Below are positions 3,705 to 41,239 of a stretch of 64,000 bases of DNA, piece after piece. The position numbers and the translations under genes were made by a program. Position 1 is the first letter of the stretch; the number at the start of each line of letters is the position of its first letter. Source of the stretch: Patescibacteria group bacterium (GTDB taxonomy: Bacteria; Patescibacteriota; Microgenomatia; UBA10105; UBA927); assembly GCA_018821245.1 (NCBI GenBank), contig JAHJMO010000002.1:9231-73230 (forward strand), in the 5' to 3' direction. Under the pieces are notes generated by a model, which worked only from the letters and a program-made list of their open reading frames with translations, did not search any database and was not told where the DNA came from.

Positions 3705-5396
3705 CTAACCGGAAAGCATGGCCACAATCTCATTTTTAATGCTCTCCCGGCCCTCCCTATCCGTGGGTACAAACTGTAGAAGCATTTCCATTTTGCCCGT
3801 CAACTTCTTATACATACCCGGTCCATACGCGCTATCTATGAGGCCTTCCCATTGCTCTTCTTTTTGGGAAATGTACACGGCTCTCATCTCATGCATGGAT
3901 ACACGCTTCAGGATCTCCATGAGCACCAGGACTTCCTCGTCATACGCATACGAAAGCGGTGCCGAACCGGAAAACTGGCCAAGGTATGTGTGTGCAAAAA
4001 AATCCGTCATTGCTTCGTTATACACGTCCGGCAGAGTCGCATCTTTCTGATAAGAGTAATAATGCAGTAACTCGTGAACCGCAATGGTCAAATAGTGCAA
4101 CAGCTTCTTCTGATCGCCGGAGTATTCCATGATAATGCCGTCGGGCGGGTGGAAAACGCCTTCTTCATAAACCGGTGTTCTGGGGTTCTTCCTGAAATCT
4201 TCGTAGGCTTTCTGCCAGGATCCTAAAACCTCCTGATAACGGGACAAGGAAAGGCGGGTTTGATTGACATACTCCTGTATTTCAGTATTTGCCTGATCGT
4301 ATTTGGAAAGTTCACCCTCCCAACGCGAGCGTTCATCCGTACAATACTGATCGTCTTCTCCTTTTACACGCCGGCAGGAGTCATACCACCGGGAAAGACG
4401 CGACGCAGAGGAAGCTTTGCTTTCGTCGTTGGAACGGACGGCTTCTTCGTTTGTAATAATATTGTTCTGAAGGTCCGAAACAGCTTTTTTGGCCTTCGCT
4501 ATCCCGGCAAGTAAACGGTCTCCCTGTTCTTTTTCCTGATCAGTGCGTATCTTAAGATAGTCTTCCGGCAAAGCTACAGCGATGGAATAGTCCGACCCCT
4601 TGACGCTCACAACGTCAGGCAAGCCCCTTGCAACGACGTGGTACGCAAGGATGGGAACAACGCGCGAAACCATGTCAAATGAAACACGCTGGACGGCAAG
4701 AATATAATCCGAAGGAATGTAGACTATGTCAAACGGTAGCGCATCCTGCCACTTCTGTAGTTCCATGGAAGACTTGTCTATGATATCCCGCAATATATAA
4801 GCTTCATAAAACGTCTTCTTCTCAAAATTATCCAACGAAAACCGCGCGTACATGAGATCTTTGGCAAAATCGTCGGAAGCGTCTATGATCCTGGGTACCT
4901 CACTCTCCACCGACAACACATCTTCCACCTGGCTAACACCGATTATCATTCCATCTTCGGGTGAAGGATAACTAAAGCGCTCTTGTTCTGCGCGCATTGA
5001 TTGCCGCGCTTTACTCCTAAGGGCTTGCGTCACGCCAACATCTGCGATCACTATGACGAGAAAAATAGCCGGCGTAAATAACAGGAGACAAGCACTCCAC
5101 CGCAGGCGGCGCCGCGCCCGCATATACAACGATAGTGCAATCGAACAGATAACTCCGGCAATAATGCCAAAGATAACTGCGTAAGCGAGTGGCGCTATCG
5201 GGTGAGCTCCCAGTATTTCGCCGGGCAGACGTAAAAAAAGAGAGATGCGCTGGGGCTGGGCTATATACGAACGCGCCGTTGTGGCATAAGAATATTCTAT
5301 GCTCGGAAGAGCTACGGAAATAAATGCAAACAGGATCCCAAAAAGGATAGTACACCACCGAAAAATACGGTCGGCATGTCCAGTGTTTTGCTTCAT
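3705..5396 (-). CDS. membrane-anchored protein with central coiled coil and C-terminal HExxH (zincin-like) motif
   Basis: N-terminal TM helices, a long charged and coiled region, and C-terminal ...IAVHELLHYY...NEAMTDF (HExxH...E). The longer ORF to 5450 would overlap the divergent gene, so the internal ATG at 5394-5396 (MKQNTG...) is the preferred start. Confidence 0.5.
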   Translation of the reverse strand: MKQNTGHADRIFRWCTILFGILFAFISVALPSIEYSYATTARSYIAQPQRISLFLRLPGEILGAHPIAPLAYAVIFGIIAGVICSIALSLYMRARRRLRWSACLLLFTPAIFLVIVIADVGVTQALRSKARQSMRAEQERFSYPSPEDGMIIGVSQVEDVLSVESEVPRIIDASDDFAKDLMYARFSLDNFEKKTFYEAYILRDIIDKSSMELQKWQDALPFDIVYIPSDYILAVQRVSFDMVSRVVPILAYHVVARGLPDVVSVKGSDYSIAVALPEDYLKIRTDQEKEQGDRLLAGIAKAKKAVSDLQNNIITNEEAVRSNDESKASSASRLSRWYDSCRRVKGEDDQYCTDERSRWEGELSKYDQANTEIQEYVNQTRLSLSRYQEVLGSWQKAYEDFRKNPRTPVYEEGVFHPPDGIIMEYSGDQKKLLHYLTIAVHELLHYYSYQKDATLPDVYNEAMTDFFAHTYLGQFSGSAPLSYAYDEEVLVLMEILKRVSMHEMRAVYISQKEEQWEGLIDSAYGPGMYKKLTGKMEMLLQFVPTDREGRESIKNEIVAMLSG

Positions 5397-5434: not shown

Positions 5435-6310
5435 ATGGAAAGCGTCCCAATACTTTATCCCGATACCTGGACCGAGTATGAACTTATAGACACAGGCGAC
5501 GGAGAAAAGCTTGAACGGTTTAATACTGTTCTCACTATCCGTCCGGATCCGAGAATAATCTGGAAAAAAAGCGAGCCTGCTACCTGGAAAGACGCTCATG
5601 CACTTTACCGGCGACACGATGAAACCAAAGGATCATGGGAAAAAGAAGAGAATCTTCCTACCCCATGGCTCATCCATTACCGCAATCTCACCATGGTATT
5701 ACGTCCTTCTGCGTTTAAACACGTCGGAATTTTCCCTGAACAGGCGGTCAATTGGGACTGGTGTACGAAACAAACAGACAACAAACCACTCCGCATCCTT
5801 AACCTCTTTGCCTATACCGGAGGAGCCACCCTCGCGGCAGCTGCGGCGGGCGCTCATGTCACACACGTGGATAGTGTCAAAAGCACGATCGCGTGGGCCC
5901 GCGAAAATGCAAAACTTTCCGGCCTGGACACAAAACCTGTGCGATGGATAGAGGATGACGCCTATGCCTTTGTTCTGCGGGAGGGACGAAGAAAAGCTAT
6001 GTATGATGCACTCATCATGGATCCGCCGCGCTTCGGACGCGGACCAAAAGGACAGGTATGGAAGCTGGAAAACGATCTGCCAAAGATGCTTGCCGCATGC
6101 ACTAGTATTCTTTCCCCAAATCCTGCTTTTATTCTCATCAACGCGTACACTGCGGACCTTTCCTCTATCGCGCTGGGAGAGTTACTTGCCGATTTCACAG
6201 GCCGTTTCGACGGCCGCGTAGACGCGGGTGAACTGGCGCTTCGACAGTCGCGCGTGGAGAGGCTTCTCCCGAGCGGCATCTTTGCCAGATGGACGGGAAT
6301 TAGTTATTAG
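5435..6310 (+). CDS. class I SAM-dependent RNA methyltransferase (RlmI/RlmK-like)
   Basis: LNLFAYTGGATLAAAAAGA (SAM-binding motif I) and DPPRFGRG (motif IV). The domain order resembles the RlmI C-terminal catalytic module. Confidence 0.6.
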   Translation: MESVPILYPDTWTEYELIDTGDGEKLERFNTVLTIRPDPRIIWKKSEPATWKDAHALYRRHDETKGSWEKEENLPTPWLIHYRNLTMVLRPSAFKHVGIFPEQAVNWDWCTKQTDNKPLRILNLFAYTGGATLAAAAAGAHVTHVDSVKSTIAWARENAKLSGLDTKPVRWIEDDAYAFVLREGRRKAMYDALIMDPPRFGRGPKGQVWKLENDLPKMLAACTSILSPNPAFILINAYTADLSSIALGELLADFTGRFDGRVDAGELALRQSRVERLLPSGIFARWTGISY

Positions 6311-6345
6311 TTATTAGTTGTTGGTTATTAGTTGCTTGGTTATTG
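6301..6345. repeat. TTAGTTA/TTGGTTA-type tandem repeat at a convergent gene junction
   Basis: tagttattagttattagttgttggttattagttgcttggttattg. Its first 10 nt encode the last codons and the TAG stop of the upstream + gene. Confidence 0.7.
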
Positions 6346-6348
6346 CAA

Positions 6349-6717
6349 TTATTGTTTTGGTTTGGTTTGCCTCACGCGAATTTTATCCAGAGAATATTTG
6401 ATTGCGCTGTCCAGATTAATCTTCTTGATCCGGGCAAAACGGATGATTGCGACCAAAATGTCCCCCAACTCCTGCTCGTATTGCTCGTCTTTTTGGGCGG
6501 AAATGTTGGTGGGCTTGCGTCCGTGCTTAGCAAGGTATGCCCTCGCCATCTCGCCTACTTCCTCGACAATTGTCAGAATAAGCATGGAACCCCATTCCTG
6601 CGTACTACGGACTTTTTTGTCGATCTGGTCCAATTCATGAAAATACGCGCCAAACGGGGTTTTGAGAAATTTTTGGCCTTTGGGCTGATTTACTAGTTTA
6701 GACGGCGATTGGTCCAT
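6349..6717 (-). CDS. MazG-like nucleotide pyrophosphohydrolase
   Basis: C-terminal ~120 aa carry the MazG fold motifs (EEVGEMARAY ... EQELGDILVAI). The N-terminal extension of the 197-aa ORF (to 6942) is low-complexity and probably spurious. Confidence 0.55.
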   Translation of the reverse strand: MDQSPSKLVNQPKGQKFLKTPFGAYFHELDQIDKKVRSTQEWGSMLILTIVEEVGEMARAYLAKHGRKPTNISAQKDEQYEQELGDILVAIIRFARIKKINLDSAIKYSLDKIRVRQTKPKQ

Positions 6718-6975
6718 AAGATGATTATACCGCAACTTGCGGATGTCTGTTTGAAATTGCATTTGTAGCGGTATTGTGGTGTGATAAATATAGATCGGGG
6801 GTGAGGAAGTATGTGCATGGAAAAAAGCTGTAAAAAAATGAAAAAATATTTCAGCAAATATCCCATGTTTAACGGCGCCATCCATGTGATCGGCGGCATA
6901 GGGATAGGGACACTCATAACGTACCCGTTCGTAGGGCAGCACCCGGTGCGTTAGGGAGTAACGCTGGTTATTTTG

Positions 6976-7221
6976 TCAGCGCTTGGCCACCTGTGGGCAG
7001 CGACCAAATAAACTGCGAAGTTCGATTTTGGCCTTATTGAGGATTGTTTTGCGTGACGGCGGTAAATTTTTACCGGCGCGGTTTATATAGAAATTCAGCA
7101 TGCTCATGGCGGATTGAAAAGGAGAGGCTTTTCTCCGCAGTGAGTTATCAGCGGAATTTTTGAGAGAAGCAGCAATTTTCTTCGGATCATCCCAAGTAAA
7201 TACCCCATCCTCCAGATCCAA
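6976..7221 (-). CDS. DUF3175 family protein
   Basis: 81 aa; ...DDPKKIAASLKNSADNS.RRKASPFQSAMSMLNFYINRAGKNLPPSRKTILNKAKIELRSLFGR matches the conserved DUF3175 core as recalled. Confidence 0.55.
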   Translation of the reverse strand: MDLEDGVFTWDDPKKIAASLKNSADNSLRRKASPFQSAMSMLNFYINRAGKNLPPSRKTILNKAKIELRSLFGRCPQVAKR

Positions 7222-7310
7222 GGCAACACTGTGCTTCGTGACATAGTCAGACCAGTTTTTTGATATAAGTGGTTAGAGTATAGCTTAAATCTCAAAATTG
7301 GTGTTATGAT

Positions 7311-7808
7311 GTGGCTATGTTAACGCTGATTCTTCCGGGATATTCGCCGGCAAACAGGCAATGGGCTCTAAAAGTAAAAGAAAATTTGAAATTGCCCGGT
7401 GAAGTCATCGTGCATGAGTGGCAACATTGGAGAGACGGAAAGAGTTTCAATCTTAAATACGAAGTAGATCAAATACTGGCAATCATCGGCAAACAGCAAG
7501 TGAATTTTATCGCCAAATCAGTCGGAACGAGAGTGCTCATGGCGCTTTTGCCGAAAATCAATAAGCAGGTGCAAAAAGTAATCCTCTGCGGCATACCGAT
7601 CGATCCGTTAAGGTATGTAAAAGGTATTAAATTGATTGGCAGAGATCATCTGCTCGTTGTCCAAAATTCGCAAGATCCCCTGATGCCGTATAAATTAATT
7701 GAAACGTACATCCATTTAATCGATAAAAAAATAAAAGCGGTTGAAAAGGAAGCCAAAAACCACGACTACCCATATTTTGACGATTTCCAAAGATTCTTGA
7801 CTATCTGA
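7311..7808 (+). CDS. small alpha/beta-hydrolase-fold esterase (putative)
   Basis: Nucleophile elbow AKSVG with Asp (NSQDP) and His (NHDYP) downstream in S-D-H order; ~165 aa; AT-rich codon usage. Confidence 0.4.
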   Translation: MAMLTLILPGYSPANRQWALKVKENLKLPGEVIVHEWQHWRDGKSFNLKYEVDQILAIIGKQQVNFIAKSVGTRVLMALLPKINKQVQKVILCGIPIDPLRYVKGIKLIGRDHLLVVQNSQDPLMPYKLIETYIHLIDKKIKAVEKEAKNHDYPYFDDFQRFLTI

Positions 7809-7825
7809 ATATTCAACTCCTTCTG

Positions 7826-7866
7826 CTACAAAATTTTCACGCCATGGCATGACTTTTTTGTAGTAA
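7826..7866. repeat. palindromic hairpin element copy 1 (ctacaaaaTTTTCACGCCATGGCatgacttttttgtag)
   Basis: Inverted repeat ctacaaaa...ttttgtag around a conserved core TTCACGCCATGGC. A second copy lies at 8617-8660, and the two flank the PaaX-like gene. Confidence 0.7.
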
Positions 7867-7888
7867 CTATTCAGGACAACAATCTCAA

Positions 7889-8593
7889 TTAGGCTATACC
7901 AAAATAATCCCGATAAGGCGAATCATCTTCTAGAGTCGTTGCGACAATATACAATACCTCGTTGCCTACACCATAATATTCTTTCAGAAAAGTCACCTGT
8001 TTTTCACAAGGATATGGATATAACCAAACGCTTTCCTGCAGCTTACAAAATCCTAAGGCTCGCAACGCTTCGCGAAAAACATCGCGCAACCGTTTTTTTC
8101 TGTTTTCCACATCGTAGACAATCAGCCTCCAACGACCGTCCCATTGTCTAGGCTTTTCGATAGATAATTCATCGAGAGCATATTTTAAAATTCTGCGCTT
8201 ACCCGCTTCTGAGAGAACTACTACTTCCTCACCGTTTTGCCCCTTAATTTCAACATATTTTTGCTTATGAAATCGTTTAATCGCTGAACGTAAATACGAA
8301 GGATTATATTGCTTCCAAACTTCATATTTCTTTCGTCGTTCTTCGTCCAAAAAAGGCTTTGCCAATATTGCGGCGGATGGCGAAATAAACGACAATCCTA
8401 CTACACCAGCTAAACCGAGAAACGCAAGAATATGCTTAACTGGAGCGTAGCGGCGATGAATTTCTTCCTGATGAATCTGTTTTGCCAGAATCGTTGATAG
8501 CTCTGCAATTCTTTCATCAGAAGGAACTGTAAGCTGTGTATCTAATCGTAGTCGTTTCTTTTGCTTGATTGTTCTTATTGATACCATAAACAA
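7889..8593 (-). CDS. PaaX-family-like transcriptional regulator homolog with N-terminal TM segment
   Basis: ...VVVLSEAGKRRILKYALDELSIEKPRQWDGRWRLIVYDVENRKKRLRDVFREALRALGFCKLQESVWLYP aligns to the E. coli PaaX segment YSLSDKGLRLTRRAESKIYRAEQPAWDGKWLLLLSEGLDKS...GFGAL.PSLM. The region after the WDG motif also looks Cas2/VapD-like (YDV..R.K..R......G....Q.SV), an observation made from the sequence here. Confidence 0.5.
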   Translation of the reverse strand: MFMVSIRTIKQKKRLRLDTQLTVPSDERIAELSTILAKQIHQEEIHRRYAPVKHILAFLGLAGVVGLSFISPSAAILAKPFLDEERRKKYEVWKQYNPSYLRSAIKRFHKQKYVEIKGQNGEEVVVLSEAGKRRILKYALDELSIEKPRQWDGRWRLIVYDVENRKKRLRDVFREALRALGFCKLQESVWLYPYPCEKQVTFLKEYYGVGNEVLYIVATTLEDDSPYRDYFGIA

Positions 8594-8616: not shown

Positions 8617-8660
8617 TCATACTACAAAATATTCACGCCATGGCTTGGGTATTTTGTAGT
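8617..8660. repeat. palindromic hairpin element copy 2 (tactacaaaataTTCACGCCATGGCttgggtattttgtagta)
   Basis: Same core and inverted-repeat arms as copy 1. Confidence 0.7.
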
Positions 8661-8831
8661 ATACCCTATTTATTAAGCTGGTGACAAGTGACGGCAAGCG
8701 AATAAATGATGACAATAATAATCAAGTAAGTGAGACGAAAGAAAATTTGAGGTATAATATGATCTTAAGTAAGGTTACTTAATAAGTATAGGCAGTTTCT
8801 GATTTCGACTGTCATAAATTGGGATCTTGGC

Positions 8832-8904
8832 TGGGAGATCGTCCAATGGTAGGACAACAGACTCTGGATCTGTTTATCTAGGTTCGAATCCTAGTCTCCC
8901 AGCC
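8832..8904 (+). tRNA. tRNA-Gln (anticodon CTG)
   Basis: Hand-folded cloverleaf: acceptor UGGGAGA/UCUCCCA (U1-A72 and G73, typical of bacterial tRNA-Gln), D-arm GTCC-AATGGTA-GGAC, anticodon arm ACAGA-CTCTGGA-TCTGT (anticodon CUG), T-arm CTAGG-TTCGAAT-CCTAG. CCA is not encoded. Confidence 0.8.
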
Positions 8905-9291: not shown

Positions 9292-9439
9292 CGCAAGACA
9301 GGCAACAAGAATTTACCATACACAACTGTATACTGATAAGAAATTATTTCGGAAAGGCGCGTCGTGGTTAGATAAGCCAGAAAAATAAATTCTTTCAGTT
9401 ATTAAGAATAATTTTCTTGGCAAAAAGAACATTAAAGTT

Positions 9440-9982
9440 TTGGATTTGGGTTCTGGGGTGGGAAGAAACGCAATTCCTATAGCTCAAATGATTGGGAAAT
9501 CAGGTGGAGAAATTATTTGCGTGGATTATCTTGATGTCGCAATTGATAAACTACATGAATATATAGAACTATACAATGTAAGTAAATATATAACAGGCAT
9601 TTTTTCTTCACTTGAAGATTTTGTTATAAACCCAGATGATTACGATTTCATCATCGCCCATAGTGTTTTAACTCACATGGAGAATAAAGAGAAAATGATT
9701 CAAACAATGAAAGATATGGCAAAGGTCACAAAGAAAAACGGTTTTGTGTATATGTATGTAATTACTAATCACAGAGAATTTGATAGAAAGACAGGAAAAG
9801 AACAGAAACTTGAAGATGAGGTAGAGATTGGCTTTGACGAAGCATGTTCATTTCTCAAGAATATTTATAGTGGATGGACAATACTGGCATTAAAGAAACA
9901 TCCGTATGAGGAAACGTTTAACAGACGAGGCAAAGAAATACGTTGGAATGTTGACTATTTGTTATTTATAGCAAAAAAATAA
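9440..9982 (+). CDS. class I SAM-dependent methyltransferase (N-terminally short or truncated)
   Basis: Starts at motif I (LDLGSGVGRN) with an acidic residue after beta2 (VDYLD). A TTG start and an in-frame stop at 9386 leave at most 17 aa upstream of motif I. Confidence 0.6.
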   Translation: MDLGSGVGRNAIPIAQMIGKSGGEIICVDYLDVAIDKLHEYIELYNVSKYITGIFSSLEDFVINPDDYDFIIAHSVLTHMENKEKMIQTMKDMAKVTKKNGFVYMYVITNHREFDRKTGKEQKLEDEVEIGFDEACSFLKNIYSGWTILALKKHPYEETFNRRGKEIRWNVDYLLFIAKK

Positions 9983-9993
9983 CAATAATAATC

Positions 9994-10014
9994 TCTAGAC
10001 CGGCCAGCTCAGCT
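9994..10014. repeat. post-stop inter-cassette motif copy 1 (tcTAGACCGGCCAGCTCAGCT)
   Basis: Shares the consensus AGACCGGCCNGCTCAGMTCAGG with copies after three other consecutive genes. Confidence 0.7.
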
Positions 10015-10018
10015 AAAT

Positions 10019-10516
10019 ATGTCAACAGAAATTCATCAAGATATAAACAAAGCAATACTTATTGTGCGTGATGCAGGGAGATGGCTAAAAGAGAGTGGAA
10101 AAAATCCTTCTAAATGGTGGTTATTAAAAAACCTCAATAAAAAATTTCTTTTAAAGTATGCAAAACCTGAAGAATTTTATGTAGCTTTAGTTGATAACAA
10201 ACCTGCAGCTGCAGCCGTACTTCAGTTTAGTCAAAAAGCTCAAGATTGGAAAAGTATTGATAAAGATAAACTCAAATCCGTTCTTTATATCCATTGGCTT
10301 TGTGTTCACAGAAAATTTGCAGGAAAAGGTTTTCCGAAAATAATGGTTGATTTTGCAGAAAAGTTAGCCAAAGAAAAAAACGTTAAACTTTTACGAGCCG
10401 ACACTAACGCAAAAGAGATGAAATTGAGAAAAATCTACGAGGATTTAGGGTTTAATTTTGTCGGCGTTGAGCAAGAAAATTATCGCCATACAGCCTTTTT
10501 TCAAAAAAAGATATAA
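10019..10516 (+). CDS. GNAT family N-acetyltransferase
   Basis: ...LYIHWLCVHRKFAGKGFPKIMVDFAEKLAKEKNVKLLRADTNAKE....IYEDLGF. GNAT motif A (R/Q-x-x-G-x-G/A) and the overall topology are present. Confidence 0.7.
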   Translation: MSTEIHQDINKAILIVRDAGRWLKESGKNPSKWWLLKNLNKKFLLKYAKPEEFYVALVDNKPAAAAVLQFSQKAQDWKSIDKDKLKSVLYIHWLCVHRKFAGKGFPKIMVDFAEKLAKEKNVKLLRADTNAKEMKLRKIYEDLGFNFVGVEQENYRHTAFFQKKI

Positions 10517-10521
10517 TTGCC

Positions 10522-10545
10522 CTGGATCGGTCAGCTCAGATCCTG
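10522..10545. repeat. post-stop inter-cassette motif copy 2 (ctGGATCGGTCAGCTCAGATCCtg)
   Basis: Same motif family; it has internal dyad GGATC...GATCC. Confidence 0.65.
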
Positions 10546-10601
10546 AAAAAAGACATCTTAGCTCTCAGCCAAAGGTAGATTTCAACAGCTTTGGAGGAAC
10601 C

Positions 10602-10639
10602 CATCCGTATGTGTCTAGCTAGCACACACCGGGTGTGTG
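10602..10639. repeat. 38-bp dispersed element copy 1 containing the perfect inverted repeat CACACACC-G-GGTGTGTG
   Basis: catccgtatgtgtctagctagcacacaccgggtgtgtg is identical to 11900-11937. It also contains the CTAGCTAG palindrome. Confidence 0.8.
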
Positions 10640-10650
10640 AATTATATATT

Positions 10651-11274
10651 ATGTTCAAAAATAAATTATTTTTGATTATTGAAACCGGTTATTTGTTTAT
10701 TTTCCCTTTGATTTTGCTGCGCTTTTATCCAACCTTCATTCACTACCGCATTTATGTATTGATGGGCAGTCTCATTTATATTTTTATTGTGGTTTATTCT
10801 CAGAAAATTACCAGTAAAAATCTCGGGCTTAATCCGAGCAGATTCTTTCCGGCAACCAAAGCGCTTTTTATACCTACTGTGCTTAGTATGTTACTGACTT
10901 TTGTTTTCTTTCAACTCGCAAGAAAGTGGTTAATAATTCCTGTGCTTGTTGAAGAAATTCGAACTCCTTCTATAGCCGTTTCTGTTTTAACTTATATTTT
11001 TGTTTCGGCTCCACTGCAAGAATTTGTGTATCGCGGCTACTTAGTTTCCAGACTGGAAATCGTTTCTCGTAATGCAACTTTTATAAAACTTTATAGCGCA
11101 ATAATCTTCATGGTAATTCACACGCCGTTTTACAATTGGTTTTTACCATTGGGTTCGCTAATTTTAGGCTTGCTCTGGACTGGTAATTTCCTTACATATA
11201 GAAACGTTTATGCCTTAATGCTGAGCCATACTCTAATCGGAGCCACGTATATTATTCTGATGGGTATGAGTTAA
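10651..11274 (+). CDS. CPBP family intramembrane metalloprotease (CAAX protease/Abi-like)
   Basis: Polytopic membrane protein with CPBP motifs QEFVYRG (motif 1), FMVIHTPF (FxxxH, motif 2) and SHTLIG (motif 3). The ATG at 10651 is preferred over the TTG at 10591. Confidence 0.65.
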   Translation: MFKNKLFLIIETGYLFIFPLILLRFYPTFIHYRIYVLMGSLIYIFIVVYSQKITSKNLGLNPSRFFPATKALFIPTVLSMLLTFVFFQLARKWLIIPVLVEEIRTPSIAVSVLTYIFVSAPLQEFVYRGYLVSRLEIVSRNATFIKLYSAIIFMVIHTPFYNWFLPLGSLILGLLWTGNFLTYRNVYALMLSHTLIGATYIILMGMS

Positions 11275-11899: not shown

Positions 11900-11937
11900 C
11901 ATCCGTATGTGTCTAGCTAGCACACACCGGGTGTGTG
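11900..11937. repeat. 38-bp dispersed element copy 2 (inverted repeat CACACACC-G-GGTGTGTG)
   Basis: Identical over 38 bp to copy 1. Lies about 215 bp upstream of the hydrolase gene. Confidence 0.8.
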
Positions 11938-31415: not shown

Positions 31416-32531
31416 TTATTGTTTTTTCACTAAATTCGGTTTATTAATCAAGTCTTCCAAAAACTTCCAACGGCGTTTTTTTTTGGAATGAGGAACGTCA
31501 TCTTTGTAAATTTTGTGGGCGGTTGTCAACGGCCGGTCGGAGTAAACAGAAATGTATGCTTTGTAAAATCCGGCTTTTTTGCAGAGGTCAACGGTATTTT
31601 GAAACTGCTCTTCGGTTTCTCCGGGAAATCCGACAATAATATCTGTGCTTAATTGTATAGTATTAATTTTTGATTTTAACTTAGCGATGAGTTTTATGTA
31701 CTCGTCGCGGGTGTACCACCGGTTCATCTTTCGAAGGATTTTGTTATCGCCTGATTGTACCGGCAAATGGATCTGGCGGGAGACGTTCGGATTTTTTGCA
31801 ATTACATCTATCAAATCATCGGAAAAATCCCAAGGATTACTTGAAATAAAATCAATTAGTTTAATTCCTTTTATTCTACAAATTTCTTCCAAAAGCTGCG
31901 GGAACAACGTCGGGATTCTCAATCTCCCTAAGTGTTTAACATAAACCGGCTTTACTCCTGTATTTACAATATCTGCACCATAAGAATTGACGTTCTGGCC
32001 AACCAGAGTGATATGCGTATAGCCGCTTTTGGCCAACTCCATACATTCGGCAATAATCTCTTCAAACGGCCGGCTGACTTCCCGTCCGCGTGTAAACGGT
32101 ACGACACAGTACGTACAGAAATTATTACAGCCGTTGCTGATCGGCACTAACGCGTGTTTAGCGTCGCCCCGAAGGGGCGCGTGGTCAAAACCAACCTCCT
32201 CAATCGGCAAAAATTCATCAACTTCCGGTAGTTTCTTTTTGAAAAGTGCTAACATTTTCCCCGTTTTTTCGCGCACTGCCATCCCAACCATACAGCCGGT
32301 GACCACAATCTTAAATTTAAAATTTTCAGTTTTTAATTTTGATAAATTTTTTACTAATCCATACACTCTGTTTTCCGCAGACTCGCGGATCATGCAGGTA
32401 TTAATGACAACTACGTCAGCATCTTTAATCAATTTGGCTTTTTTATACCCCCTTCCCTCATAACCGGCCGCGATCCGCTCGCTGTCAGCAACGTTTTGGG
32501 CGCAGCCGAAGGTAACGATGTGATATTTCAT
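31416..32531 (-). CDS. miaB: MiaB-family radical-SAM methylthiotransferase (short form, no obvious TRAM domain)
   Basis: N-terminal MTTase domain (IVTFGCAQN), radical SAM CNNFCTYCVVP; 371 aa. Confidence 0.75.
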   Translation of the reverse strand: MKYHIVTFGCAQNVADSERIAAGYEGRGYKKAKLIKDADVVVINTCMIRESAENRVYGLVKNLSKLKTENFKFKIVVTGCMVGMAVREKTGKMLALFKKKLPEVDEFLPIEEVGFDHAPLRGDAKHALVPISNGCNNFCTYCVVPFTRGREVSRPFEEIIAECMELAKSGYTHITLVGQNVNSYGADIVNTGVKPVYVKHLGRLRIPTLFPQLLEEICRIKGIKLIDFISSNPWDFSDDLIDVIAKNPNVSRQIHLPVQSGDNKILRKMNRWYTRDEYIKLIAKLKSKINTIQLSTDIIVGFPGETEEQFQNTVDLCKKAGFYKAYISVYSDRPLTTAHKIYKDDVPHSKKKRRWKFLEDLINKPNLVKKQ

Positions 32532-32674
32532 AGCCTATATCCTAAACAGATGACTCTATTACATTGATTACCAGCGGAGTCCGCAGAAGCGAACATTCGG
32601 CTGCGTGGACGTAGACCACGAGTCGAATTTGAGCGAAGGCGGGCGCAGCCGAAGGTAACGATGTGATATTTCAT
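32528..32674 (-). CDS. upstream ORF whose first 11 codons duplicate the miaB start (48 aa) and whose TGA overlaps the miaB ATG
   Basis: Plus-strand 32641-32675 (gggcgcagccgaaggtaacgatgtgatatttcat) repeats 32497-32531. Minus-strand translation is MKYHIVTFGCARLRSNSTRGLRPRSRMFASADSAGNQCNRVICLGYRL* and ends in ATGA with the miaB start. TACAAT lies 8 nt upstream of its ATG. Could equally be a non-translated duplication relic. Confidence 0.3.
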   Translation of the reverse strand: MKYHIVTFGCARLRSNSTRGLRPRSRMFASADSAGNQCNRVICLGYRL

Positions 32675-38887: not shown

Positions 38888-39925
38888 CTACTCTCGGTTA
38901 GAGGCGCCCTTCGTCAGCTTTGCTTGCGCCTGGCCGGAGCGTACGGCTTTCCAGATGGACTCCTTAATTTCTTTTTCCAATTTCGCGTTCTCCCGAAGAT
39001 ACATCTTTGCCGCCTCCCGACCCTGCCCGAGCATTTGTTGCCCGTATTTCAAGAAAGCACCGGATTTCGTCAATAACCCAAACTCAAGCCCCACATCTAT
39101 AAGCCCGCCCTCTTTCGAAATCCCATCGTGCATAACATCAAATTCTGCAATACGAAACGGAGGGGCGACTTTGTTTTTCACCACCCTGATCCTGTGGCGG
39201 CTTCCTATGAAGCGATCTCCGTCTTTGAGCGTCTCGATTTTCCGGGAATCCATGCGGATACTTGCGTAAAACTTAAGCGCCAGGCCTCCCGGCGTAGTCT
39301 CGGGATTGCCGAACATGACGCCGATTTTCTGACGCAATTGGTTAGTGAACATAACAACTGTCTTTGATTTAGAAATGACTGCGGTAAGTTTGCGCAAGGC
39401 CTGCGACATAAGCCGCGCCTGAACACCGATGATACTATCCCCCATCTCTCCCTCTATTTCTGCCCGCGGTACCAAGGCGGCAACGGAGTCGATGACGATG
39501 ACATCCACTCCTCCGCTTCTGATCAATGTTTCAGCAATCTCCAATGCCTGCTCTCCTGTATCCGGCTGAGAAATGAGAAGATCATCGAGCTTGACTCCTA
39601 ACACCTGCGCCCATGAAGGATCAAGAGCATGCTCCGCATCAATGAAGGCGGCTATCCCTCCAGTCTTTTGTGCTTCCGCAATAACGGAGAGACATACCGT
39701 CGTTTTCCCCGACGCTTCGGGGCCGTAAATTTCCACGACCCTCCCGCACGGAATTCCTCCAACTCCCAACGCCAAATCCAAGGGGAGAATCCCTGAAGAT
39801 ATCACATCGATGGATGTTTTGCCGGAGATTTTTTCTCCAAGCTTCATGATCGCCCCTTTTCCATACTGCTTCTCGATTTGCTCCATCGCAATTCTGATGG
39901 CTGATAATTTTGCGTCTTGCGACAT
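38888..39925 (-). CDS. recA: recombinase RecA
   Basis: GPEASGKTT Walker A, L1/L2 loops, ~345 aa from [31 protein letters not shown]. The ORF-track extension to 40222 runs across tRNA-Pro and is an artefact. Confidence 0.92.
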
Positions 39926-40006
39926 ATGGGTCTCCTTTCGATGGGCATTAAAATTCATCCCATTCTTACACAAAAAATGGTAGAATACAAGGGAGAAGCT
40001 TAGTTG

Positions 40007-40083
40007 CGGGGTGTGGCGCAATTGGCTAGCGCATTCGCATGGGGTGCGAAAGGTTGCTCGTTCAAGTCGAGTCACCCCGACCA
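40007..40083 (+). tRNA. tRNA-Pro (anticodon GGG), CCA encoded
   Basis: Hand-folded cloverleaf: acceptor CGGGGTG/CACCCCG, D-arm GCGC-AATTGGCTA-GCGC, anticodon arm TTCGC-ATGGGGT-GCGAA, T-arm GCTCG-TTCAAGT-CGAGT, discriminator A plus CCA. Confidence 0.8.
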
Positions 40084-40135
40084 ACTTTCCAGTGTAAAGG
40101 CTTAAAGGTTGCTCGTTTCCCGCAAAGCGGGACAA
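40066..40135. repeat. direct repeat DR1: tRNA-Pro 3' end plus ~50 nt of downstream sequence
   Basis: gtcgagtcaccccgacca-actttccagtgtaaaggcttaaaggttgctcgtttcccgcaaagc is repeated at 40204-40273 at roughly 85-90% identity. Confidence 0.75.
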
Positions 40136-40203
40136 GTTTACCCCGTATAGGCGCTCTTCCGAGGCCCCGCTAAGCGGGGCGAGGAAGTAAGGTTTATACT
40201 GGG

Positions 40204-40273
40204 GTCGAGTCACCCCGACCAAGTTTCCGGTGTAAAGGTTTAGAGGTTGCTCGTTTCCCGCTAAGCAAGATCC
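40204..40273. repeat. direct repeat DR2 (second copy of the tRNA-Pro 3'-end segment)
   Basis: gtcgagtcaccccgacca-agtttccggtgtaaaggtttagaggttgctcgtttcccgctaagc. Confidence 0.75.
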
Positions 40274-40570
40274 ACGATACCGAGGTGCAAAACTAGTCCA
40301 TTCCTTTCACCCTCAAATTATGTACTTTTACACCTGCGGCCGCATGTCTGATTTTACATATTGCACATTAAAGACTTGCCCTATTGCCTTATATCGGGCC
40401 TATATCGACCATATCTGCACAATTCATCCGATCCGCATAATTCCCGAGGCGCAAAGCTAACCCATACCTAAAATATCATTCGCATAATATGCACGCTTAA
40501 CAAAAATTGTGGGAAGGAAGATGTTAGAAGCTAGTTAATCCGGGAGTGATTAGTTTGGGTCGAGAAATAA

Positions 40571-41239
40571 TTAATATTTGCAGGTGGCGGCGCGGGTGAA
40601 GCCGGCGGCAAGAGCTTCTTTTTCCGTACAAAACCATTGTTCGCCTATGTCCTCTTCCACAATGGTAAACGCATACTGAGCGCAGCCCGAAATATAATAA
40701 AGGTGCGTATCTGTGGATTTATCGATATTGCCTTTGATCAAACACTTCGGATTTTTGCTGTTGGTCGTTGACTGGCAGGCACCGTAAATACCACGCTTCT
40801 CCTGACGGGCCAGATCACTTGCTGCTTTTACTTCTTCCGTTACGGCAGAATTGTCATGATGATACCGGACCCAGCCGGAAGCTAACATTTCTTTGTTGAT
40901 AAGCGTACTTCCAACATACACCAGCGCCATGCCCCTGCCGTACGTATCCGGTATGGTTTCTTCGATGCGGACGGATTTCCCCATCACAAGATTTTCTAAC
41001 TCCCTGGTAGCCTGATCATACCCACACAAACCCTTTTCCGGCGCATCCACGTACCGCAGGCGCACACGGGACTTGCCTTCAAGAACGACTGTGTCGCCGT
41101 CTATCACACCGATAACAACTACTCCAGAGTTTGAAGAAAGTCGTGCTTGATATAACAAAACGAAATTCAAAATAATCGAGGGGATAAGAAAAAGAATGGG
41201 AAGATATTTGGATATGTGCAACTTCCTGAAGCTTGCCAT
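40571..41239 (-). CDS. thermonuclease (SNase-like) with membrane anchor and Cys-rich C-terminal domain
   Basis: GVIDGDTVVL....VRLRYVDAPE matches the staphylococcal nuclease active-site region. N-terminal TM helix; six Cys in the C-terminal 80 aa. Confidence 0.65.
   Translation of the reverse strand: MASFRKLHISKYLPILFLIPSIILNFVLLYQARLSSNSGVVVIGVIDGDTVVLEGKSRVRLRYVDAPEKGLCGYDQATRELENLVMGKSVRIEETIPDTYGRGMALVYVGSTLINKEMLASGWVRYHHDNSAVTEEVKAASDLARQEKRGIYGACQSTTNSKNPKCLIKGNIDKSTDTHLYYISGCAQYAFTIVEEDIGEQWFCTEKEALAAGFTRAATCKY

Follow-up and report, generated by a model that had tools for sequence, protein, structure and literature searches.

Whether the partial copy of a tRNA-Pro gene that lies just downstream of the intact gene is the trace of a former mobile element was the question raised by this locus. 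It lies near recA in a stretch of 64,000 nucleotides (the window) from a Gottesmanbacteria-like CPR/Patescibacteria MAG. The locus was analysed for the structure of the repeat, for its counterparts in related genomes and for sequences of an element that could have produced it.

The tRNA-Pro gene and the direct repeat

The features of the locus are listed in Table 1. The T arm of the tRNA-Pro reads GCTCG-TTCAAGT-CGAGT. ARAGORN reported this tRNA alone in 39990-40300, also with a relaxed threshold, and neither a second tRNA nor a tmRNA. The Rfam tRNA covariance model did not report it, even at E <= 10 on a 91-nt stretch, and was likewise silent on the tRNA-Pro genes of the related loci L087, L091, L112 and L117; in the same search the tRNA-Pro of L092 was matched at 61 bits. 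The TGgTAGAAT block sits in a conserved stretch upstream of the gene and, to judge from its letters, is presumed to be the tRNA-Pro promoter; a consensus promoter scan made no call there. The block, CATCCCATTCTTACACAAAAAATGGTAGAATACAAG, is also found upstream of the tRNA in L107, L110, L112, L126 and L127. On the other side, 487 nt of non-coding DNA separate the tRNA gene from the convergent SNase gene, and a promoter and terminator scan called an intrinsic terminator nowhere in 40084-40570. The first-pass annotation had described AT-rich non-coding DNA followed by a secreted nuclease gene. The DNA is only mildly AT-rich, with about 42% GC in 40267-40570 versus about 47% nearby, and the nuclease, identified as such by its Pfam domain, was found to be membrane-anchored.

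Table 1. Positions of the features at the tRNA-Pro locus of the window
Feature	Position	Strand	Remarks
recA	38888-39925	-	Divergent from tRNA-Pro; conserved near border of the locus
TGgTAGAAT block, putative promoter	39978-39986	+	Extended -10-like; read from the sequence
tRNA-Pro(GGG)	40007-40083	+	77 nt, encoded CCA; canonical cloverleaf (ARAGORN)
Repeat copy 1	40066-40128	+	Last 18 nt of tRNA, 20-nt linker, 14-nt T-arm piece, then TCCCGCAAAGC
Second copy of T-arm 14-mer, AAAGGTTGCTCGTT	40104-40117	+	Followed by TCCCGC instead of CAAGT
Hairpin H1, TCCCGC-AAA-GCGGGA	40118-40132	+	Placed where the T loop would continue
Spacer between repeat copies, 75 nt	40129-40203	+	All that could remain of an inserted element
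Long hairpin H2, ACCCCGTATAGGC...GGTTTATACTGGGGT	40140-40205	+	Inner tip GCCCCGC-TAA-GCGGGGC
Repeat copy 2	40204-40266	+	Displaced tRNA 3' end and same trailer; 58/63 identical to copy 1
Third copy of T-arm 14-mer, AGAGGTTGCTCGTT	40242-40255	+	Again followed by TCCCGC
Imperfect 42-nt palindrome	40319-40360	.	Centred on GCGGCCGC; inverted-repeat search
SNase (thermonuclease) gene	40571-41239	-	Pfam SNase domain, N-terminal hydrophobic anchor

A repeat search returned one direct repeat of 63 nt at a spacing of 138 nt. This agreed with the earlier statement that the last 18 nt of the tRNA recur 138 bp further on, and exactly two copies of the 18-mer GTCGAGTCACCCCGACCA were present in the 64 kb, whereas at least two matches were contained in none of 100 shuffles. 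The repetition past the tRNA, put at about 50 nt by the first-pass annotation, extends over 45 nt, and the identity is 92% rather than the 85-90% that had been given. The repeat begins 2 nt before the end of the T loop and continues through CCA, so that the block consists of 18 nt of tRNA 3' end and 45 nt of trailer. The linker reads ASTTTCCRGTGTAAAGG, and TCCCGCWAAGC stands behind the 14-mer. All five mismatches between the copies fall in the 45-nt trailer. The left junction of copy 2 is GGTTTATACTGGGGTCGAGTCACC, and about 40 bp around the CCA end are kept in this copy with 2 changes only; it could still act as a spare (secondary) attachment site. The likeness between the copies ends abruptly at 63 nt, and the next 75 nt of each are unrelated. 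TRF found no tandem array in 40000-40300, the copies being alike over 63 nt of the 138-nt period. The spacer between the copies contained no ORF and resembled none of the fetched loci.

The 14-mer is a copy of the tRNA variable loop, the 5' strand of the T stem and the first TT of the T loop. Its three copies start at 40049 within the tRNA, at 40104 and at 40242. A separate third T-arm fragment between the repeats, as annotated before, does not exist; the pieces at 40104 and 40242 are parts of the 63-nt copies themselves. Behind hairpin H1 stands CAAGT-TT-ACCCCG, which is the 3' end of the tRNA with a deletion, and the 120 nt from the end of the tRNA to copy 2 fold into GC-rich hairpins. The fold of 40104-40221 reached -58.4 kcal/mol (z = -4.8; none of 200 shuffles was as stable), with the T-stem strands forming a closing helix around two GC hairpins. 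Copy 2 folded no better than shuffles (z = +0.55). Within the 64 kb the hairpin motif CCCGCWAAGCGGG and the repeat were confined to the tRNA-Pro locus, and Rfam 15 gave no relevant match at the repeats at E <= 10. A description of the region as four degenerate tandem units was not relied on, as the consensus had been derived from the window itself. Hairpins of the IS200/IS605 type or the integron attC type were dropped as candidates for want of dispersed copies, conserved core sites or a cognate gene.

The window is 99.99% identical to contig JAHJUP010000033.1 of assembly GCA_018829345.1. Over 40000-40344 there was no difference between the NCBI MAG, the ENA assembly and two Logan assemblies, and single Logan contigs spanned both copies of the repeat. 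Its identity in independent assemblies means that the repeat is real, not an assembly artefact, and fixed in the species. The Logan contigs end at the 42-nt palindrome (SRR10598174 at 40344 and SRR6514730 at 40319, with an overlap of 26 nt), which suggests that in these metagenomes the bases at 40318 and 40345 vary or the flanks differ. No viral contig matched a 19-mer taken from the palindrome (40326-40344).

Other repeats were seen elsewhere in the window. Two palindromic direct repeats of 40 nt, 88% identical (CTACAAAA...TTTTGTAG; 7826-7865 and 8622-8661), lie just upstream of a tRNA-Gln gene (8832-8904) and flank an ORF of 234 amino acids on the minus strand (7889-8593) with a PaaX central Cas2-like domain. 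A membrane-protein ORF and a small ORF lie between the two exact copies of a 38-nt direct repeat (10602-10639 and 11900-11937), which are 1298 nt apart; a weaker pair is located at 9974 and 11793. The start of a 371-aa ORF (31416-32531; MKYHIVTFGCA...) is present as an exact 34-nt copy (32498-32531 and 32641-32674) placed 143 nt upstream of the gene.

Insertions at the same tRNA-Pro gene in related genomes

Related loci were retrieved via homologues of the nuclease and of recA and by one metagenome scan for the 18-mer. A scan of genome contigs with recA was uninformative as this gene is too conserved; the best match was a Daviesbacteria locus at 69%. The tRNA-Pro sequences of L107, L110, L117 and L127 were 100% identical to that of the window. 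L107 represents an empty site, in which the tRNA is followed by CCA-AAAAT and then by the ATG of a small membrane-protein gene. In L127 the site is occupied by an insert of 7.4 kb that lies between the tRNA and an ortholog of the same membrane-protein gene (86% amino acid identity). Its left junction reads tRNA...CACCCCGAC/AGAAATAG and its right junction ...GATATAA/CCCGAC/CAAAAAAATATG, CCCGAC being present at both. A large serine recombinase gene in the insert is intact and encodes Resolvase, Recombinase and Zn-ribbon domains. The exact tRNA-Pro of the window has thus been shown to be the attachment site of a serine-recombinase element in this relative. L128 has the same arrangement as L127, and the recA genes of both are 84% identical to that of the window. 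An element of the same kind, 9.9 kb in size, was present in L087.

The elements of L127 and L087 share some further traits (positions 6067-7923 and 476-575 in L127 and 9326-11181 and 1-131 in L087). The recombinase gene is flanked by inverted repeats of 106-118 nt that include the last bases of the tRNA and are 100% and 96% identical. Between the members of a second inverted-repeat pair (100 and 104 nt; 100% and 99% identical) lies a cargo of 5.6-9 kb. The internal site of these elements may be read as an inverted attP, and in both the recombinase reading frame continues without a stop, in antisense direction, across the conserved arm and the tRNA.

The interval between the nuclease gene, which in most relatives closes the variable region on its far side, and the tRNA varied in every relative. 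L087, L090, L091, L124 and L125 carried 1-10 kb of different genes. The interval was 318 bp in L092 and 1.2 kb with a hydrolase gene in L091; it reached 5.3 kb in L090 (a methylase, an S24 repressor-like gene and Thoeris ThsB) and more than 5 kb in L125 (CBASS SMODS and a BamHI-like restriction-modification pair). The 5.3-kb insert of L090 is flanked by tRNA-end fragments, and the distal fragment and its 34-nt flank match the region flanking the L091 tRNA at 85% identity. The latter is 99% identical to L090 in the nuclease region and lacks the L090 insert. The 3' side of tRNA-Pro is therefore a hotspot of site-specific insertion and rearrangement in this lineage. The comparison of related genomes that the first-pass annotation had proposed bore out the hotspot, with insertions at this tRNA in L127, L087, L090, L125 and others.

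Some details of gene order were noted beside these results. L124, the closest nuclease relative (78% amino acid identity), has a gene for a 223-aa Y1_Tnp (IS200-like) protein at 4098-4769 directly after the nuclease gene, with a hairpin TTCCACCT...AGGTGGAA after its stop codon. The order in L112 and L117 is tRNA-Pro, pseudo-copy and recX, with no recA between them. In L130 only 18 nt separate recX from the nuclease gene, and the two genes diverge.

Partial copies of tRNA-Pro beside the intact gene and inserted DNA were present in L110, L112, L117 and L129. In L112 the tRNA is followed by GGTTGGTAGTT/TCCCGC, a hairpin of 43 nt and GGGA/CAAGTCTGCCCACCCCGAC; the T-stem strands of this pseudo-copy close a helix around the GC hairpin (z = -3.8). 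L117 has a degenerate version of the same pseudo-copy that has lost the hairpin, and L129 has the L112-like architecture with a third T-stem allele. L110 (10024-10386, in tRNA orientation) carries, behind the conserved promoter block, a 5' pseudo-half that is broken by the palindrome CCCCGAGCACTCGGGG and followed by an 84-aa GIY-YIG nuclease ORF (Pfam E = 7e-19) running into the intact tRNA-Pro. A palindrome that opens with (T)CCCGC interrupts all 3' pseudo-copies, always at one position of the T loop. The junction of 5' T-stem, TT and (T)CCCGC recurs in the window, L112, L117 and L129 with three T-stem alleles, each of them complementary. The tRNA-Pro genes that are identical over positions 1-48 carry two internally complementary T-stem alleles, GCTCG/CGAGT in the window, L107, L110, L117 and L127 and GGCAG/CTGCC in L087 and L091. 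L112 has GCTCG/CGAGT in the gene and GGCAG/CTGCC in the adjacent pseudo-copy, as would be expected if the T arm of an incoming element takes the place of the resident one and displaces it. The partial tRNA-Pro copies at this locus are interpreted as footprints of insertions.

Origin of the repeat in the window

A repeat that runs from inside the T loop through the tRNA 3' end occupies the classic position for an att repeat of an element targeted to a tRNA gene. As the window repeat starts in the T loop and contains the tRNA 3' end, it is read as an att scar, which fits the pattern of the locus. It is somewhat more probably than otherwise a decayed or tandem scar from site-specific recombination at the 3' end of tRNA-Pro(GGG), and the duplication in the window would then go back to a recombinase. 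An element integrating into the tRNA gene would carry a 3' part of the tRNA of its own; the gene would stay intact, and the displaced host copy would be pushed downstream as a direct repeat. The interior of the element would have been lost later, either once or by collapse of a tandem or nested array. The residue would be the tRNA, the 20-nt linker, a T-arm fragment and GC hairpins, followed by the second tRNA 3' end with linker and T-arm fragment. Nothing mobile remains at the window locus.

The first-pass annotation had taken the copies for an attL/attR-like scar of an excised or decayed element. The hotspot at the tRNA upholds one part of that view, and a remnant is the explanation to which the balance inclines. 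The attL/attR pair is not upheld, there being no element DNA but only 75-120 nt of hairpins between the copies and 45 nt shared beyond the tRNA. Since P' and B' should differ, copies that share these 45 nt are not a simple attL/attR pair. The shared stretch requires either an attP that matches attB over 63 nt or successive tandem or nested events. With successive events, an earlier scar of tRNA, linker, T-arm fragment and hairpin would itself have been duplicated. The serine-recombinase elements of the relatives have only about 6 nt in common with the tRNA and therefore cannot have made a repeat of 63 nt.

The responsible element was searched for in several ways. Neither a recombinase nor an element gene nor a recognisable arm sequence was found in or near the window repeats. 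tblastn of the relatives' serine recombinase and Y1 transposase against the window returned only the antisense-tRNA artefact, and blastn of the window intergenic region against all fetched loci returned nothing, including the P and P' arm sequences of L127 and L087. Scans of viral contigs gave no match for the 18-mer, for the linker with the T-arm piece or for the L127/L087 P-arm junction, and a 14-mer junction scan gave chance matches only. blastn against phage and plasmid collections yielded no match and no attP-like partner. The integrase or attP carrying the repeat that the first-pass annotation had suggested looking for was thus not found in the window, the relatives, the 30 metagenome loci or the viral, phage and plasmid collections; these collections are poor in CPR sequences, and the lack of an attP partner in them is weak evidence. 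Two traits of a tRNA-targeted att site were accordingly seen, a repeat of the 3' part and empty and occupied alleles in related genomes (L107 and L127; L090 and L091 also differ), and two were missing, integrase-bearing DNA between the repeats and a matching attP. Insertion polymorphism at the window's own repeats, which had also been anticipated, was not observed; all same-species assemblies were identical, and none of the 30 metagenome loci with the 18-mer had two copies.

The same observations were weighed for a local duplication independent of any recombinase, in which slippage or template switching between the trailer hairpins would have produced a second copy of the 63 nt, 138 nt downstream. 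The repeat starts within one hairpin loop (the T loop) and ends within another (that of H1), the region is exceptionally structured, and the repeats show neither an element remnant or recombinase nor polymorphism within the species. A tandem copy would, however, match over the whole 138-nt period and not over 63 nt without a TRF array, and partial tRNA-Pro copies with inserted DNA throughout the lineage make an origin from mobile elements simpler. A local duplication of this kind is therefore considered less likely than the scar, though still a credible alternative. Chance similarity or mis-assembly of repeated reads is practically negligible in view of the 58 identical positions out of 63, the 18-mer that was never doubled in shuffles, the identical sequence in four independent assemblies and the single Logan contigs that cover both copies.

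The structure of the trailer could also point to a functional RNA, a T-arm mimic around GC hairpins that serves as a processing, termination or decoy element, the duplication being part of the evolution of that RNA. The window fold and the L112 pseudo-copy are both closed by a T-stem helix, and the (T)CCCGC junction is kept in four genomes with three T-stem alleles that are still complementary. Matching T-stem alleles are, however, equally expected from plain copies of tRNA genes, and the two changes in the linker-D2 hairpin are not compensatory. The L117 copy is without a hairpin, the third T-arm copy of the window is degenerate, and repeat copy 2 folds like shuffles. With neither an Rfam family nor a called terminator, a functional RNA appears improbable. 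To much the same degree it is doubtful that an undescribed CPR element or recombination mechanism acts on the T loop of tRNA-Pro. Its signature would be a pseudo T arm in which a GC-rich palindrome that opens with (T)CCCGC interrupts the T loop, after TT and before CAA(G/A)T. Such a split arm occurs twice in the window and in L112, L117 and L129, and a comparable GC palindrome is present in the 5' pseudo-copy of L110. In one form of this proposal the attP would mimic the T arm and recombine as a folded structure, and the 63-nt repeat would represent two successive footprints of the process.

If the att scar is the correct explanation, an element carrying TATACTGGG-GTCGAGTCACCCCGACCA-ACTTTCC is to be expected, with a candidate att junction at TATACTGGG/GTCGAG. 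The attP of the responsible element would be expected to carry GGTTTATACTGGGGTCGAGTCACC, the linker and GCTCGTTTCCCGC.

Comparison with known systems

The mobile elements of CPR/Patescibacteria are poorly charted. In Gottesmanbacteria the tRNA-Pro(GGG) gene by recA is a landing pad for serine-recombinase elements, islands with defence genes and a GIY-YIG cassette, and it thereby offers a concrete attB for finding mobile elements of CPR and for comparing strains. Read as an integration scar at a tRNA hotspot, the feature is of a familiar kind, from a lineage that has been little studied. As the window holds the scar only, it adds an example and not a new principle.

Short palindromic insertions of the REP/MITE type resemble the window in their GC-rich palindromes with the ends (T)CCCGC...GCGGG(A), which occur at one defined position in several genomes. 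They differ in that the window has no other copies in 64 kb and no target-site duplication and that the interiors vary widely; a Y1 transposase gene is present in the relative L124 but not in the window. The free-standing GIY-YIG homing-endonuclease cassette of L110 likewise combines a partial tRNA-Pro beside the intact gene with a pseudo-copy broken by a GC palindrome. There, however, the 5' half is duplicated and an ORF is present, whereas the window has a duplicated 3' end and no ORF.

Serine recombinases need only a 2-nt crossover. Large-serine-recombinase elements with attB x attP recombination of the phiC31/Bxb1 type, as in L127 and L087, use the same tRNA-Pro 3' end as attB in a relative, and the window keeps two near-identical candidate attB sequences. 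The L127 junctions share CCCGAC only, and the window has no serine recombinase gene and no P or P' arms.

Scars and island arrays at tRNA genes, left by tyrosine-integrase islands, prophages and ICEs, are known for instance from the Klebsiella Asn tDNA hotspots with direct repeats (PMC4891358) and from tandem SGI1 arrays (PMC2297512). Unlike such scars, the window has no integrase or element DNA, a spacing of only 75 nt, 45 nt shared past the tRNA and no known partner attP. It resembles them in a repeat that starts in the T loop and includes the 3' end while the gene stays intact, and in that the same tRNA holds different islands in relatives, some of them with defence genes.
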